A stretch of 11,531 nucleotides of DNA from Candidatus Bathyarchaeia archaeon. Lineage in GTDB: Archaea > Thermoproteota > Bathyarchaeia > Bathyarchaeales > Bathycorpusculaceae. The stretch lies in assembly GCA_050015395.1 (NCBI GenBank), contig JBEKBM010000041.1:1-11531 (forward strand), in the 5' to 3' direction. The first letter of the stretch is position 1. Each line of letters starts with the position of its first letter. Shown here one piece after another: positions 610 to 6,529 of the stretch. Both the position numbers and the translations under genes were made by a program. Under the pieces are notes generated by a model. The model saw nothing but the letters and a program-made list of their open reading frames with translations. It searched no databases and was not told where the DNA came from.

Positions 610-1431
610 CTAAACGTTTACAGGCATTTTTGTTGCTGCCTTAAGCCCAGACGCAGTCGCTTGCAACTCTTTAAGCATAGCATCGATGTTGCCCTGACGC
701 TTTTGGATCAGGTTGATGAAGGCGCTTCCAACGATGACGCCATCTGCTCCTGCCCCAACAATGCGCGCTACATGCTCAGACTTCGAAACGCCAAACCCAA
801 CCGCCAACGGAATCCTCCCAGACGTGAAAGGCAAAACACGCTTGACCAGCTGAATAGTTGAACCCTCAATCGCTGACTGCGCACCTGTAACGCCGAAATG
901 TGAAACAAGATACAGAAAACCTGAAGAACACTCAACAATCCTTGACAATCGCTCGTTAGAAGTTGAGGGTGCTGCAAGGAAAATCGAGTCTATGCCGAAT
1001 TTGTTTGCTGCTTTCTTGTAGTCGCCTGCTTCCTCGACGGGTAAGTCTGGAACTATGACGCCATCAACCAGGCATTCTTTGGCTAACCTGAAAAATCTTT
1101 CCAGCCCCATCCTGAACACTGGATTATAGTAAGTCATTATTACAACTGGCACATCATGCCTTTGCCGTATTTCCTTAGCAACTTCCAGCACCTTAACAGG
1201 CGTTGTTCCAGCAGCTAAAGCGCGTACGCTTGCAGCTTGAATTGTGGGTCCATCAGCAATCGGATCAGAGAACGGCAATCCCAACTCCAGAATGTCTACG
1301 CCGCCTTTGATTAAGGCATCAGCAATTTTCGCTGTCAGTTCTGGTTTTGGGTCTCCAGCCATAATGTAGCCGATAAGCGCCCTGTTTCCATGCGCCTTTG
1401 CCTTTTGGAAGGCTTCGTTTATTGCGTTCAT
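610..1431 (-). CDS. trpA: Tryptophan synthase alpha chain
   Basis: Motifs [52 protein letters not shown] and [12 protein letters not shown] overlap with the trpB stop. Confidence 0.98.
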
Positions 1432-2624
1432 ATTTTCGCCCTTATGTAGTCTGCTACAGTTTCCACGTCTTTGTCTCCCCGTCCCGACACTGTTACGACG
1501 ATTGACTGGGTCTTCTTCATCTGCTTGGCTAACTTCATTGCGTAAGCTACTGCATGCGAGGACTCTAATGCAGGCAGGATTCCTTCCTCTCTGGACAAAG
1601 TGAGAAAAGCATCTACCGCTTCCTTGTCCGTAGCAGAAGTATACTGCGCTCTCTTAAGCGTCTTAAGGAGGGAATGCTCTGGTCCAACGCCAGGATAATC
1701 TAAGCCAGCGGACACGCTGCTTGTGTTCTGTATTTGTCCATTACTATCTTGAAGAACGTAGGTTAACATGCCGTGAAATACGCCTTCTGCTCCTGCGCCA
1801 AGTGATGCGGCATGTTTGCCTGTTTCTAAGCCTTGGCCAGCAGCTTCAACACCGTAAAGCTTCACCGCGTCATCATCTTCGAAGGGGTAGAAGGTGCCCA
1901 TGGCGTTGCTTCCGCCGCCAACACAAGCAACCAGTGCGTCTGGCAGTCGACCTTCTTTTTTGTGGAATTGTTCTTTGAGTTCCTTGCCGATTACGCTTTG
2001 AAAATCTCTAACAATCATAGGGTACGGATGAGGACCCACCACCGAACCGATTAAGTAATATGTGCTCTCGATGTTTGTAACCCAATCCCTGAACGCCTCG
2101 TTTATCGAGTCCTTGAGGGTTTTTGAGCCAACTTCCACAGGATGGACTTGCGCGTTTAAAAGTTTCATCCTAAAAACGTTAAGCCGCTGCCGTTCACAGT
2201 CTTCCGTGCCCATGTAAACCTCAGCTTTTAAACCTAAAGCAGCGCAAGCTATTGCTGTGGCTACGCCGTGTTGACCTGCTCCTGTCTCAGCGATTACACG
2301 CGTCTTACCCATACGCTTAGCCAGAAGCGCTTGGCCGATTGTATTGTTTATTTTGTGTGCTCCACCGTGCGCTAAGTCTTCACGTTTAAGGTAAATCTTG
2401 GCGCCGCCCAGTTTACGGGTCAAGTTCTTAGCGTAATACAATGGTGTTGGTCTTCCAACGAATTCTGAAAGATAATAGTCAAGTTCTTTTTGGAAAGTCG
2501 GGTCTTTTCGGGCTTGCTCGTAGGCGTCTTCCAGCTCCTTAATCGCTGCCATCAGGACTTCTGGAACAAAACGACCGCCATATTTCCCATATTTTCCGTC
2601 AACTGGGTAATTGCTTACTTTCAT
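1428..2624 (-). CDS. trpB: Tryptophan synthase beta chain (TrpB1 type)
   Basis: [24 protein letters not shown] (PLP lysine), [51 protein letters not shown]. Confidence 0.98.
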
Positions 2625-3400
2625 TTTGCATTCACAAACTCCTTAACTTTTTCTTCAATGTTATCGGTTGACATTATGGCTGATCCGATAAGGAAAGCGC
2701 ATGCGCCACTTTCACGGAGAAACCGTATGTCTGCTGGCGTGTTTATTCCGCTTTCACTTACGACCACTTTGCCTTTTGGATTAATTTCGGCAAGAATTTG
2801 TTTTGTCACGTTCAAATTCACCTTTAATGTTTCAAGGTTACGATTATTTATCCCAATCAAATCAGCGCCTGTTTTGATGGCTGAGCGAAACTCCGATTCG
2901 GTGTGGGTTTCAAGCAAAACCTCAAGACCGAACAGATGAGCCCCGTCTATCATTTCGTTAATGCTTTTTTCACAGTATCCTCTGTCAAAAAGCGCTTTAA
3001 TTAGCAAAACGGCGTTAGCTCCTATCTTTGGTGCGGCTTCGATTTGTATTGGGCTTAAGATTATGTCTTTCATGAGGATGGGAAGTTTCACGGCTTCTCG
3101 CGCTTCAGCCAATGCTTCTAGAGAGCCATTGAAGTGTTTTGGCTCAGTTAACACGGATATTGCGGTTGCTCCGCCTTTTGCCATAGCCTTCGCAATCATG
3201 CTTGCTTTAACGTTTTTTCTGATTATCCCAGCTGATGGTGAAGCGGCTTTGATTTCGGTTATGACTGGGGTAGCTTTGCTTTCTAAAATTGCCTTCCTTA
3301 AACTAATGCGAACCCTTTCTGTCGGCTTTAACGTTTCATAGTATCCGCTATCAATTGTTTCTTTAGCATCACGCGCCAGCACATCAAGGAAATCACTCAT
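2621..3400 (-). CDS. trpC: Indole-3-glycerol phosphate synthase (monofunctional, no TrpF fusion)
   Basis: [43 protein letters not shown]; 259 aa. Confidence 0.96.
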
Positions 3401-4454
3401 ACTTCGCTTTCAACTCCTCAAGTTTTGACAGGCTGCCGCCTGAAGCTTTCACTAAAGCCTTAAGCTTGGCGTAGGCAGCTCCGCTTTCGATTGATTTGCG
3501 AGCTATTTCCATGCCGCCTTCGAAGTCTTCTGCTTCCCCGCCAACAATGATTCCTGCCGCACTGTTGACAAGCACAAACTCCGCTTTGGGGTCATCTAAG
3601 GTGCAGTTGCCGCTGAGAATTTTGAATAAAGTTTCAGCGCTTTCCTCAAGCGTTTCCACTTTCAAATCGGCGATGCTTGCCTTTTCTATTCCGAAATCGC
3701 TTGGAGAAGCCTCTCGTTCTGTTACTTTGCCTTTCTTTAACCATGCAATAGCCGTCTTTCCAACCGTTGACACTTCATCTAAGCCATCTAATCCATGAAC
3801 AACCATCGCTTCCTCGCAACCCAGCCGCTTCAACGCATAAGCCAATGGGGCAGTCAGTTTGGGGTCATATACGCCGAGCAGTTGGGCGTTAGCGCATGCT
3901 GGATTAGTTAGCGGTCCGAGGAGGTTGAATACTGTGCGAATGCCAATTTCCCGTCTTGGCTCAGCAGCATACTTCATAGCGGGATTGAAAGCTGGAGCAA
4001 ACATGAAGCCTATCCCAACGTTTTCTATTATGCCTTCAACTGCTTCGGGCTCCAAGTACAGGTTAAGACCGAGCTTTTCCAGCACGTCGGCGCTGCCGCT
4101 TTTGCTGGTTACAGCCCTGTTTCCATGCTTAGCAACCGCAACGCCAGCTCCTGCAATGACGAAGGCTGCTGCTGTGCTCACGTTGAAGGTTTTTATTTTG
4201 TCTCCGCCTGTCCCGCAGGTATCCACTAGGCGGCTATGCACACGGGGATGTATTTGGCTGCTCTGCTCACGCATAACAGAGGCAAAGGCGATGAGTTCCT
4301 CAACAGCTTCACCCTTCATTCGCAAGGCTGTTAGAAAAGCAGCAGTTTGTGAGCTTGTCGCTTTCCCCGACATGACTTCTCGCATTATCGCTCCTGACTC
4401 GTCGCTTGTTAAGCTGTAGCCTTCGATGAGTTTCTGTATGCCTTCCCTAATCAC
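3393..4454 (-). CDS. trpD: Anthranilate phosphoribosyltransferase
   Basis: DTCGTGGD, TFNVST, VAKHGNRAVTSKSGSADVLE, RTVFNLLGPLTNP, GLDEVS. GTG start overlaps the trpG stop. Confidence 0.98.
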   Translation of the reverse strand: MIREGIQKLIEGYSLTSDESGAIMREVMSGKATSSQTAAFLTALRMKGEAVEELIAFASVMREQSSQIHPRVHSRLVDTCGTGGDKIKTFNVSTAAAFVIAGAGVAVAKHGNRAVTSKSGSADVLEKLGLNLYLEPEAVEGIIENVGIGFMFAPAFNPAMKYAAEPRREIGIRTVFNLLGPLTNPACANAQLLGVYDPKLTAPLAYALKRLGCEEAMVVHGLDGLDEVSTVGKTAIAWLKKGKVTEREASPSDFGIEKASIADLKVETLEESAETLFKILSGNCTLDDPKAEFVLVNSAAGIIVGGEAEDFEGGMEIARKSIESGAAYAKLKALVKASGGSLSKLEELKAKYE

Positions 4455-5041
4455 AGCCGTCGCCCGCCATCCAAAAAGTTTTTAATTATAACTTTCCCAT
4501 CCTCGCAGAGAATCGATTCGGGATGAAATTGCACGCCGTCAATCGGGTACTTAACATGCCGAACACCCATGATTTCACCGTCGTCAACGCATTCTGCGGT
4601 AATTTCTAAGCATGAAGGAATAGAGCATCGCTCGCCAGCAAGTGAGTGATATCTCGTTGCCGTGAATGGGTTGCGTACACCCTTGAAGATACCTTTTTGG
4701 TCATGTTTTATGGTGCAGGTTTTGCCGTGCATTAGCCTTTTTGCGTGGATGATTTTTCCGCCATAGACGCTGATTATTCCTTGGTGACCTAAGCAGACGC
4801 CTAAAGTTGGAATTGTACGACTCATAGTTTGCAGAATTTCTGTGCAAACGCCAAAATACCTAACATCCTCAGGCGTGCCTGGACCTGGCGAAATCACAAT
4901 TCTGTCAGGTTTAAGCTTGGTTAACTGTTCTAGGGTAACTTTGTTGTTTCTGTAAACGATGGTTTCTGCGCCCTGTTCGCCTATGTACTGGACAAGGTTG
5001 TAAACGAACGAATCGTAATTATCGATTACTACTACCTTCAT
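4451..5041 (-). CDS. trpG: Anthranilate synthase component II (class I glutamine amidotransferase)
   Basis: IDNYDSFVYNL, ISPGPG, LGVCLGHQ, RYHSL, GVQFHPES (Cys-His-Glu triad). Confidence 0.97.
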   Translation of the reverse strand: MKVVVIDNYDSFVYNLVQYIGEQGAETIVYRNNKVTLEQLTKLKPDRIVISPGPGTPEDVRYFGVCTEILQTMSRTIPTLGVCLGHQGIISVYGGKIIHAKRLMHGKTCTIKHDQKGIFKGVRNPFTATRYHSLAGERCSIPSCLEITAECVDDGEIMGVRHVKYPIDGVQFHPESILCEDGKVIIKNFLDGGRRL

Positions 5042-6463
5042 GCTTTTGCGCCTCCAGCCCGCTCAAGCGCCTGCATCAGCGCTTTTGCCTTGTCGTCTGT
5101 TTCGAACCATTCTCTTTCTGGAACTGAATCAGCTACGATTCCGGCGCCAGCTTGAATGTACGCTTTGTTCTTGTCGGCGAAGAGGGTGCGGATGGTTATG
5201 GCAAAGTCGGCATTGCCATTGTATGAAAAGTAGCCTACTGCACCAGCGTAAGGTCCACGCCTTGCTGGTTCAAGTTCGTCAATGATTTCCATGGCTCGCA
5301 CTTTTGGTGCTCCAGAAACCGTGCCAGCTGGAAAAACAGCCCGCAACGCGTCATAGCTTTGAAGGTTTTCTTTAAGTTCACCTACCACTTGCGAAACAAT
5401 ATGTTGTACGTGGCTGTACCGATGGACTTTCATGAATTCAGGCACATGAACGCTACCGTACTTGGAGATTCTGCCAATATCATTACGTGCTAAATCGACA
5501 AGCATCACGTGTTCAGCACGTTCTTTTGGGTCGGCAAGCAATTCGCAGGCTAACTTGCGGTTTTCACCAGGGTCTTCAGCAACTGGTCTTGTTCCTGCAA
5601 TCGGGAAGGTTTCCACGGTTCTGTTTTCAACTCGGACGAGCATTTCGGGGCTGGAACCAACGATTTGCCGATCGCCTGACTTGTAAAAGTACATGTAGGG
5701 TGAAGGATTAATGGTGCGAAGAGACTGATAAAACGGAATCAGGTCACCTTTTATTTGGAATTGGTAGCGTTTGGACAGGACAACTTGGAAAATGTCTCCT
5801 GCAGTCACGTATTCTTTTGCTTTTTCTACCGCTTTTTCATAGTTTTCTTTTTTAGTGCTTACTTTAGGTTGAGTGTAAGATAATTCTTCAGAAGTGATGG
5901 GTTGCTTGAGTAGGTTTTCAACTTCGGGTAGACGGTTCTCGCTTCGGTAATAGTAGAATGCTTGTCGCTGTATATGGTTGAAGATGAATCCGTCGTCAAA
6001 TATGCCCATTTCCAATTCAGGAAAATTCAGGTCAAATCGGGACTTTTCTGGCAGTTTTTCCCAGTAACGTACCGCATCATAAGAGATGTAGCCGACTGCT
6101 CCGCCAATGAATCTGAATTCGCTGTTTGAGACTGCATCGTCTTTGAGGAGTTTTTCTATGAGTTGCAGTGGGTCGCTTGTTTTCTGTGTGGTTGTTTCGC
6201 CGGTTCTTTCGTTTTTGATTTGGGCTTTTTTGTTTTTTGTTTGGAGGGTTATTTTTGGGTCGAATCCGATGAATGAGTATTGTGCGAGTTTTTTTGGTCC
6301 TTCGATTGATTCGAGAAGGTAGGTTGTTTTGTATTGTTTTTGGAGTTTTGAGAATATTTCGAGGGGTTGTTGAGTGATCTGGATTTTTTTGATTTTTAGG
6401 GGGTTAGCTGGTTTGGTTTCGGTTGTTGTCTGTGTGCCAAAGGTGATTCCCCATTTTGTTCAT
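5038..6463 (-). CDS. trpE: Anthranilate synthase component I; the full-length product appears to need a +1 frameshift near 6442-6439 (about 474 aa from ATG 6463)
   Basis: The C-terminal part has GDIFQVVLS, NPSPYM, GSSPE, PIAGTRP, EHVMLVDLARND, PAGTVSGAPK and AGAGIVADS. Manual translation shows the same frame open from 6015 up to 6459 (TGA at 6462-6460), encoding ...PLEIFSKLQKQYKTTYLLESIEGPKKLAQYSFIGFDP...FRFIGGAVGYISYDAVRYWE..., but with no in-frame ATG/GTG/TTG. The ORF-track start at 6015 is internal. Gene identity is near certain; the start and frameshift are inferred. Confidence 0.9.
6404..6463 (-). CDS. 19-aa leader ORF MNKMGNHLWHTDNNRNQTS, the zero-frame product at the trpE start, with a single Trp codon
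   Basis: ATG AAC AAA ATG GGG AAT CAC CTT TGG CAC ACA GAC AAC AAC CGA AAC CAA ACC AGC TAA, preceded by TAAGGAAGC. A second in-frame ATG lies at 6454. Confidence 0.65.
   Translation of the reverse strand: MNKMGNHLWHTDNNRNQTS
6436..6442 (-). other. Candidate programmed +1 ribosomal frameshift site CUU-UGG-C
   Basis: P-site CUU can re-pair on the overlapping UUU (6441-6439), which is in the trpE frame. The zero-frame A-site codon is UGG (Trp). Confidence 0.65.
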
Positions 6464-6483
6464 GCTTCCTTATGGTTCAAAAA

Positions 6484-6529
6484 TATACGCCAATGTATTA
6501 TTTAAGGCTTACCAGTACAAAAATGTACT
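6484..6529 (-). promoter_or_regulatory. Putative trp operon promoter (TATA CTTAAATA, 6506-6499) flanked by two palindromic operator-like sites
   Basis: A perfect inverted repeat AGTACA-AAAA-TGTACT (6514-6529) and an imperfect copy TATACG-CCAA-TGTATT (6484-6499) lie 30 bp apart on either side of the TATA-like box, about 36 nt upstream of ATG 6463. Confidence 0.55.

Follow-up and report, generated by a model that had tools for sequence, protein, structure and literature searches.

An A/C-rich, weakly folding tract of trpE behind a putative tryptophan-sensing frameshift site in a Bathyarchaeial genome

The trp operon and the leader of trpE

The 11,531-nucleotide (nt) stretch of DNA analysed here, called the window throughout, is the entire contig JBEKBM010000041.1 of the Candidatus Bathyarchaeia archaeon assembly GCA_050015395.1 (contig C41 of genome G000 in the numbering used below; 2.59 Mb, 42 contigs, 42.6% G+C). 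The minus strand of the window carries a trp operon. Its first gene, trpE, is preceded by a short leader open reading frame (ORF) with a Trp codon at a putative +1 frameshift site, and directly behind this site trpE opens with a tract that is rich in A and C and poor in G and U. This A/C tract is the subject of the analysis; the features of the locus are collected in Table 1.

Table 1. Features of the trpE locus and the trp operon in the window
Feature	Position	Strand	Remarks
Promoter-like box AAGCCTTAAATA	6499..6510	-	Almost unchanged upstream of trpE in relatives
Shine-Dalgarno (SD)-like GGAAG before the leader start	6465..6469	-	GGAAG or GGAG at this place in most relatives; function presumed
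Leader ORF MGNHLWHTDNNRNQTS (then stop), from the conserved ATG	6404..6454	-	One Trp codon, 6439-6437; stop at 6406-6404
Putative +1 shift site CTT TGG C (NUU UGG N)	6436..6442	-	trpE is +1 to the leader
A/C tract, 105 trpE codons (315 nt)	6121..6435	-	A 0.48, C 0.31, U 0.12, G 0.09
Ordinary to G/U-richer zone after the tract	6001..6120	-	A+C 0.47, U 0.28
trpE frame after the shift	5038..6441	-	467 amino acids; Pfam Anth_synt_I_N and Chorismate_bind
Downstream genes trpG, trpD, trpC-like, trpB, trpA	610..5041	-	trpG is a glutamine amidotransferase (GATase, Pfam); other names by order and length

Between 6459 and 5038 the trpE frame has no stop, and its first in-frame ATG, GTG or TTG lies only at 6015. 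The product matches Anth_synt_I_N over residues 25-162 (E 1e-34) and Chorismate_bind over residues 198-451 (E 1e-99), and the tract encodes roughly the first 80 positions of the former domain. The leader frame is -1 to that of trpE; in its longest form the leader starts at an extra in-frame ATG at 6463 and reads MNKMGNHLWHTDNNRNQTS. The first-pass annotation had the leader terminate at 6404, which was borne out, and the CUU UGG C of the shift site is conserved class-wide. The RNA of the tract would therefore be free of ribosomes when no shift occurs. In several relatives the trpE frame is closed upstream of the shift site by a TGA (from ATGAGG), and from this and the conservation we infer frameshifting at CUU UGG C. 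The promoter-like box may, from the general consensus, be a B recognition element/TATA element.

The layout is that of prfB, the gene for release factor 2, whose +1 programmed frameshift site is CUU UGA C: a slippery NUU U is followed by a Trp codon in the A site, a 0-frame stop comes soon after, and the main ORF lies in the +1 frame and has no start of its own. The slippery Leu codon is the same, and here too a slow A-site codon would report the supply of the pathway's own product. Unlike in prfB, the A-site codon is a sense Trp codon and not a stop codon, and the G-rich element lies 6 nt upstream as against 3 nt in prfB. To our knowledge no A/C tract lies behind prfB sites.

Among 119 unique trpE loci whose 5' end is intact, 106 have a leader of the form M-(G/R)-(N/Y/D)-x-(L/V/I/F)-W, joined to NTT TGG N with trpE in the +1 frame. 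These loci were pooled from relatives, public genome contigs and a class-wide sample; some genomes occur in more than one of these sets, and since the loci are also related to one another, the counts are descriptive. In the even class-wide sample the arrangement is present at 37 of 44 loci; of the other seven, one is truncated by the end of its contig. Within this genome the sole match to the leader motif is that of trpE itself. The leader and NTT TGG N look like an ancient, Trp-sensing programmed +1 frameshift. A literature search turned up no account of Trp sensing by a frameshift at archaeal trpE, and the terms tryptophan, trpE and anthranilate occur nowhere in the text of a 2021 review of archaeal recoding (PMC8211752); judged from the sequences and this search, a class-wide frameshift of this kind in Bathyarchaeia appears to be unreported.

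Composition and folding of the tract

Across 6435-6121, A and C make up 79% of the tract, with 92% at third codon positions and 72% at first and second positions. The counts of the first-pass annotation were reproduced: the mRNA of 6420-6181 has A 0.496, C 0.300, U 0.125 and G 0.079, and 93 of the 100 codons of 6420-6121 end in A or C (A 54, C 39, T 4, G 3). The share of third codon positions that are A or C (AC3) is 62% in the other 360 codons of trpE and 0.47-0.59 in the other genes of the operon; in cutA, which lies on the same strand 100 nt upstream, it is 0.30. The edges of the tract are sharp, with A+C at 0.74-0.79 in 6480-6121, 0.38 in 6600-6481 and 0.47 in 6120-6001. Runs of three or more U are absent from its 315 nt as against 17.2 per kb of coding sequence, and the first U4 run of trpE comes at about 6025-6022.

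It is clear that this composition is exceptional in the genome. In 240-nt genome windows the mean A+C is 0.50 +/- 0.062; tracts with A+C of at least 0.75 or at most 0.25 number 19 in 2.59 Mb, and that of trpE is the third most extreme. The AC3 of 0.92 is matched by none of 5366 non-overlapping 105-codon windows, taken from a crude set of 2251 genes. The A/C share of 0.72 at first and second positions (vs 0.51) is reached in four of them, and the two jointly in none. Residues whose codons can be written with A and C only (K, N, T, Q, H and P) make up 0.50 of the tract as against 0.26 +/- 0.05 genome-wide, a level reached by six of the windows. Nor are such tracts common at the 5' ends of genes: no average 5' codon trend exists in the genome, AC3 being flat (0.54-0.56) from codon 10 to codon 200 in the 2251 crude genes, and there is no general codon ramp. 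Windows of 60 codons with AC3 of at least 0.85 and A+C of at least 0.70 occur in 18 of 1453 genes, where they are spread along the gene length with four in the first tenth. Other extreme tracts lie in Thr/Pro/Asn-rich low-complexity segments, in the antisense of membrane-protein genes, in an island on contig C25 and in a few non-coding stretches.

The tract had also been noted for its lack of start codons, and there is indeed no ATG, GTG or TTG in any frame of 6437-6138, the nearest being at 6463, 6454, 6440, 6137 and 6107. As a separate signal, however, this absence did not stand, since composition explains it: composition-preserving shuffles held a mean of 2.1 start triplets and none with a probability of 0.10. 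Similarly, long antisense and 0-frame ORFs run across the tract because it is poor in U (about 1.3 0-frame stops are expected by a hand estimate), and they were not taken as genes.

The predicted folding of the tract is extremely weak. Its minimum free energy is -19.1 kcal/mol. The first 315 nt of 280 sampled genes have -72.7 +/- 12.6 kcal/mol, and not one of these segments folds as weakly. When the tract is folded together with its flanks, the mean probability of being unpaired is 0.72 in the tract and 0.51-0.54 in the flanks. The structure that does recur, in the minimum-energy folds of 6380-6455 (minus strand) and of close relatives, joins the leader to the tract by GGGG:CCCC(C) and UUUGG:CCAAA; it encloses the leader stop codon and adds about -13 kcal/mol to leader and tract. 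More distant relatives have different, shorter local hairpins (UUGGC...GCCAA) instead. Covariation cannot be shown for the leader-tract pairing, because its 5' arm is invariant. There are no stable hairpins after the leader and no U run of the kind seen in a trpL-type attenuator, and a reading of the tract as a hairpin attenuator was rejected on the ground that the RNA cannot fold.

Avoidance of structure at the 5' end of coding regions, or a codon ramp, is general and spans about 10-15 codons. The tract is like such ramps, and like the downstream CA-repeat enhancers of E. coli, in that silent sites near the gene start appear to be selected for unstructured, CA-rich RNA. It is unlike them in that it covers 105 codons, is found in one gene of the genome and includes amino-acid replacements. 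Coding tracts of A and C only that follow a recoding site were not met with in the literature, though no search was aimed at that alone.

Conservation of the tract and divergence at silent sites

All congeners have the tract (A+C 0.68-0.80); with greater distance it becomes weaker, and most other lineages that bear the shift have next to none. In 27 shifted loci with at least 79% protein identity, A+C is 0.75 (0.68-0.79) in the first 300 nt and 0.55 in the rest of the gene. The corresponding values are 0.69 (0.57-0.77) and 0.54 in 45 shifted loci of 64-79% identity, and 0.55 (0.46-0.65) and 0.51 in 34 shifted loci of 50-64% identity; in this last group the excess is +0.042 and is positive in 30 of the 34. 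Among 31 close relatives AC3 is 0.84-0.92 over about 90 codons and then 0.47-0.53 at codons 110-130, so that the start of the tract at the shift site and its end near codon 105 are common to all 31. It persists through divergence down to 66% protein identity.

As to trpE orthologues that lack the frameshift, 11 non-shifted loci have no excess of A+C (-0.005, positive in 5 of 11), and an in-frame congener keeps the tract. At two loci of the genus, L013 with CTT GAC and L042 with CTT TGC, the leader runs on into trpE in one frame and the Trp codon is missing. In the former (genome G006) the tract has A+C of 0.80 and AC3 of 0.90, and its nearest relative in the set is 80.6% identical in DNA; the latter is 93.6% identical to shifted relatives, and its CTT TGC may be an assembly error. 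Either the two are natural 'sensor-less' variants or they are assembly errors. Since the frameshift occurs without the tract in most lineages and an in-frame congener has the tract, it is not an obligatory part of the sensor; the link between the two is nonetheless supported, at the level of sequence, by the position of the tract and the graded comparative trend.

The first-pass annotation had argued from the bias at synonymous sites that selection acts on the RNA, and here the comparisons agreed with it: the bias includes synonymous sites, is maintained in evolution and goes with slowed silent divergence. In 30 close pairs from 26 loci, which are not phylogenetically independent, divergence at four-fold sites is 0.174 in the tract and 0.313 in the rest of trpE, and at two-fold silent sites 0.097 and 0.181, whereas amino-acid divergence is 0.162 and 0.075. 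Silent sites are thus conserved while the amino acids diverge faster, which points to selection on the nucleotide sequence, and RNA-level selection on the tract is well supported by these sequence comparisons. Among silent differences, transitions account for 65% in the tract and 68% in the rest, and A<>C changes for 21% and 12%; selection and biased mutation cannot be told apart by this spectrum, and it was set aside as a discriminator.

Possible roles of the tract and other A/C-rich regions

The reading favoured here is that the tract is a selected property of the mRNA and not of the protein. A and C cannot pair with each other, and the RNA of the tract therefore cannot fold upon itself. The tract may then serve as an unpairable, insulating buffer and a fast lane behind the sensor, free of starts, SD motifs and terminators; a probability of about 0.35 is given to this tentative proposal. 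Behind the Trp-codon sensor, G and U would have been removed from first, second and third codon positions alike over about 315 nt of trpE. A/C would be one of the few two-letter alphabets without pairs, and the only one that also excludes starts, stops, GGAGG-like motifs and U tracts; a tract written in it would offer no trpE-frame stops, no GGAGG-like motifs and no U runs, which serve in archaea as signals for termination and for FttA. As long as a ribosome is held at a hungry UGG, RNA polymerase could run ahead for some 300 nt without signals for termination, folding or re-initiation. Nothing would fold for long onto the G/U-rich leader, and re-initiation could not bypass the sensor. The shifted ribosome would then cross the structure-free RNA fast and catch up, on A/C-ending codons that may also be preferred by the abundant proteins of the genome. 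Polar loss in the OFF state, if any, would arise in the U-containing sequence after 6120 or via lost translational coupling, and not inside the tract.

It is more doubtful that the tract is a kinetic 'delay line', a new kind of cis-element for the recoding sensor, by which RNA polymerase could safely move on ahead and the shifted ribosome catch up before an FttA-type surveillance of uncoupled transcription acts. If true, archaeal transcription-translation coupling and its policing would become readable from sequence. If the tract is functional at all, silent and replacement positions of a conserved enzyme domain have been rewritten for a property of the RNA, which is rarely so visible. Frameshift and tract together provide a sequence-level handle on the regulation of amino-acid operons and on the policing of uncoupled transcription without Rho in archaea, with natural controls that range from the frameshift alone through a weak tract to the extreme tract, along with the in-frame variant that keeps it.

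The first-pass annotation had proposed a Rho-like role, in which the tract loads FttA (aCPSF1) or a nuclease and a failed shift shuts off the operon in a polar way. In this model the tract would be an entry or cleavage site, and the shut-off would come about through termination or through decay in the 5'-to-3' direction. The model is judged unlikely. In the E. coli tna operon a Rho-utilisation (rut) site lies next to the tnaC stop codon. Like that site, the tract is C-rich, G-poor, unstructured nascent RNA just downstream of a short leader ORF with a Trp codon, and it would be naked once the leader ribosome leaves at the stop codon. A rut site takes some 80 nt or more of such RNA, and the tract, with C 0.31 and G 0.095 over 317 nt and its weak predicted folding, has this character. 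Unlike a rut site, the tract is coding, 315 nt long and as A-rich as it is C-rich; furthermore, the tna rut site is masked by the stalled ribosome, whereas the tract would lie outside a ribosome that pauses at UGG. No match to the Rho RNA-binding domain (PF07497, Rho_RNA_bind) was found in this genome, which is 98.9% complete (as a control, the domain was found in 9 of 14 reference genomes, all bacteria), and the identification of the tract as a rut site was rejected for this reason.

FttA/aCPSF1 itself is encoded (TIGR03675 at G000:C37:5676-7559, 904.6 bits vs a cut-off of 580.2), which is a point of likeness to termination by this factor (PMC11616081, PMC8716108, PMC7515710, PMC3553952). FttA is reported to bind and cleave U-rich RNA, where a U is optimal at -23 and a U-rich stretch lies at -30 to -36 (PMC11616081); a second account gives the same preference (PMC13681488), and the terminators described are likewise rich in U. 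The tract, in contrast, holds 12% U and no run of three U, and looks more like avoidance of the signal than like the sites described; as a described FttA terminator it is not supported on the published specificity. The Pyrococcus aCPSF1 is reported to cleave preferentially at single-stranded CA and to act as a 5'-3' exonuclease (PMC3553952), and this would favour an entry site in the tract, where 40 CA lie in unpaired RNA. However, 46.4 are expected from composition, and CA enrichment as a signature of aCPSF1 was therefore rejected. A peat metatranscriptome run yielded 5% of the sampled words and six short contigs from a relative 90-96% similar, one of which (266 nt) spans 6099-6364; these contigs carry no ends, strand or expression level.

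In favour of an entry site, trpG, the trpC-like gene and trpB have SD-like motifs of their own, so that control of the whole operon would need more than control of trpE translation. Alternatively, since neighbouring genes of the operon (610-5041, minus strand) share 4 or 8 nt at all five junctions (ATGA/GTGA type), as genes coupled in translation would be expected to do, such coupling could carry the decision down the operon without transcriptional polarity. The occurrence of the frameshift without the tract in most lineages also counts against an entry site. Furthermore, the tract would be as naked during a Trp-starved pause as in the OFF state, and co-transcriptional loading would defeat the sensor; a loading site behind a pause-based sensor would be most exposed during Trp shortage, and insulation is thus favoured over loading.

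Several points nevertheless weigh against the tract as an insulating buffer selected at the RNA level. Most shift-bearing Bathyarchaeia have no strong tract, so the sensor works without it, and the in-frame, Trp-free L013 keeps it without a Trp codon, and the tract is thus perhaps independent of the sensor. A buffer of 300 nt leaves the remaining 1.1 kb of trpE unprotected. The specificity of FttA was established in Thermococcus and Methanococcus and the Bathyarchaeial enzyme may differ; the CA preference reported for the Pyrococcus aCPSF1 (PMC3553952) points the opposite way. L2, L4 and S19 have AC3 of 0.58-0.60 and the two copies of EF-2 have 0.54 and 0.45, so the link of high expression to A/C-ending codons is only moderate. 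Finally, besides the shared ancestry of the 30 pairs, a strongly biased mutation equilibrium would also be expected to lower silent divergence somewhat.

A role in translation only, where extreme use of preferred A/C-ending codons and easy residues maximises the speed and yield of the rare shifted ribosomes, has a lower probability than either a delay line or an entry site. Codons ending in A or C are enriched in S7 (AC3 0.87), thermosome (0.80), L15e (0.75), GAPDH (0.75) and EF-1alpha (0.72), and a protein like single-stranded-DNA-binding protein is also among the highest; some of these names were assigned by eye. Within operons (50 runs of at least four genes), AC3 also drops slightly with gene order: gene 1 stands at +0.024 and genes 6-7 at about -0.03. 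Codon choice, however, cannot explain the bias at first and second positions or the doubling of K, N, T, Q, H and P. Moreover, the tract lies above every whole gene of the genome (maximum 0.87), there is no genome-average 5' trend, and the ordinary AC3 of several ribosomal proteins and EF-2 again stands against it.

Equally improbable is that the tract has no function and reflects local mutational or compositional drift in a weakly constrained N-terminal part of TrpE. The twofold amino-acid divergence in the tract relative to the rest of the gene is consistent with this, as are the other A/C-skewed regions of the genome, including the C25 island of about 19 kb, and changes to G or T do occur among close relatives, as the transitions among silent differences indicate. 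However, drift would not be expected to leave sharp edges at the same place in 31 relatives or to persist to 66% protein identity. The low AC3 of the neighbouring cutA and these edges also led to the rejection of a regional strand skew of the C25 type. Across the genome the per-gene standard deviation of AC3 (0.093) is three times the binomial sampling expectation (0.032), and AC3 is correlated between co-oriented neighbours (r=0.32) and not between opposed ones (r=-0.05); it therefore follows the coding strand. Deamination linked to transcription would make the exposed coding strand rich in G+T, and a mutational origin of this kind would thus give the opposite sign to that observed.

Least probable of all is that the tract is a platform for an RNA-binding protein or small RNA (e.g. 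an Sm-like protein on A-rich triplets), or that stretches of C and A in it control access to the start codon or shift site by pairing with the G/U-rich leader, since, despite the recurrent pairing in close relatives, both partners are conserved coding sequence with an invariant 5' arm and hence no covariation, distant relatives fold otherwise, and 315 nt far exceeds what a stem needs.

Four other regions of the genome were noted in the course of this work. The C25 island (about 8,200-27,000) is A/C-rich at third positions of the plus strand whatever the gene orientation, with AC3 of 0.72-0.83 in plus-strand genes and 0.21-0.34 in minus-strand genes; this suggests a strand-specific mutational history, e.g. 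that of a foreign or integrated element. A gene for an HtrA-like protease (C7, 45046-46335, minus strand) has an A/C-rich 5' part and no canonical start codon, and its upstream region holds two copies of a conserved hairpin, GCTACTA-N7-TAGTAGC. Five of six orthologues (L100-L105) have ACG 8 nt after AAGGAG or GAGGAG, and the sixth has ATG there; because these orthologues point to a conserved ACG start and to an AC3 that is uniformly high along the whole gene, it was rejected as a second case of recoding with an A/C tract.

The aspartate-kinase/shikimate operon (C3, about 35,700-35,850, minus strand) begins with a 27-codon leader rich in Tyr and Phe (…SFDYYFYHYFP), followed by a perfect 9-bp hairpin with a T6 run in its loop just before the ATG of the kinase. 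The arrangement resembles a leader-peptide attenuator. It was dismissed as a second sensor with a tract: the kinase starts at an ATG of its own, and its first 270 nt, with A+C of 0.47-0.56, form no A/C tract. Lastly, two further A/C-rich tracts, C3:87945-88314 and C5:117902-118141, are largely non-coding or made of short ORFs; by eye they share an 18-base string, AAAAAGCAACCCAAAACA, and a PKPKKQPKT-like reading, and may be copies of one element.

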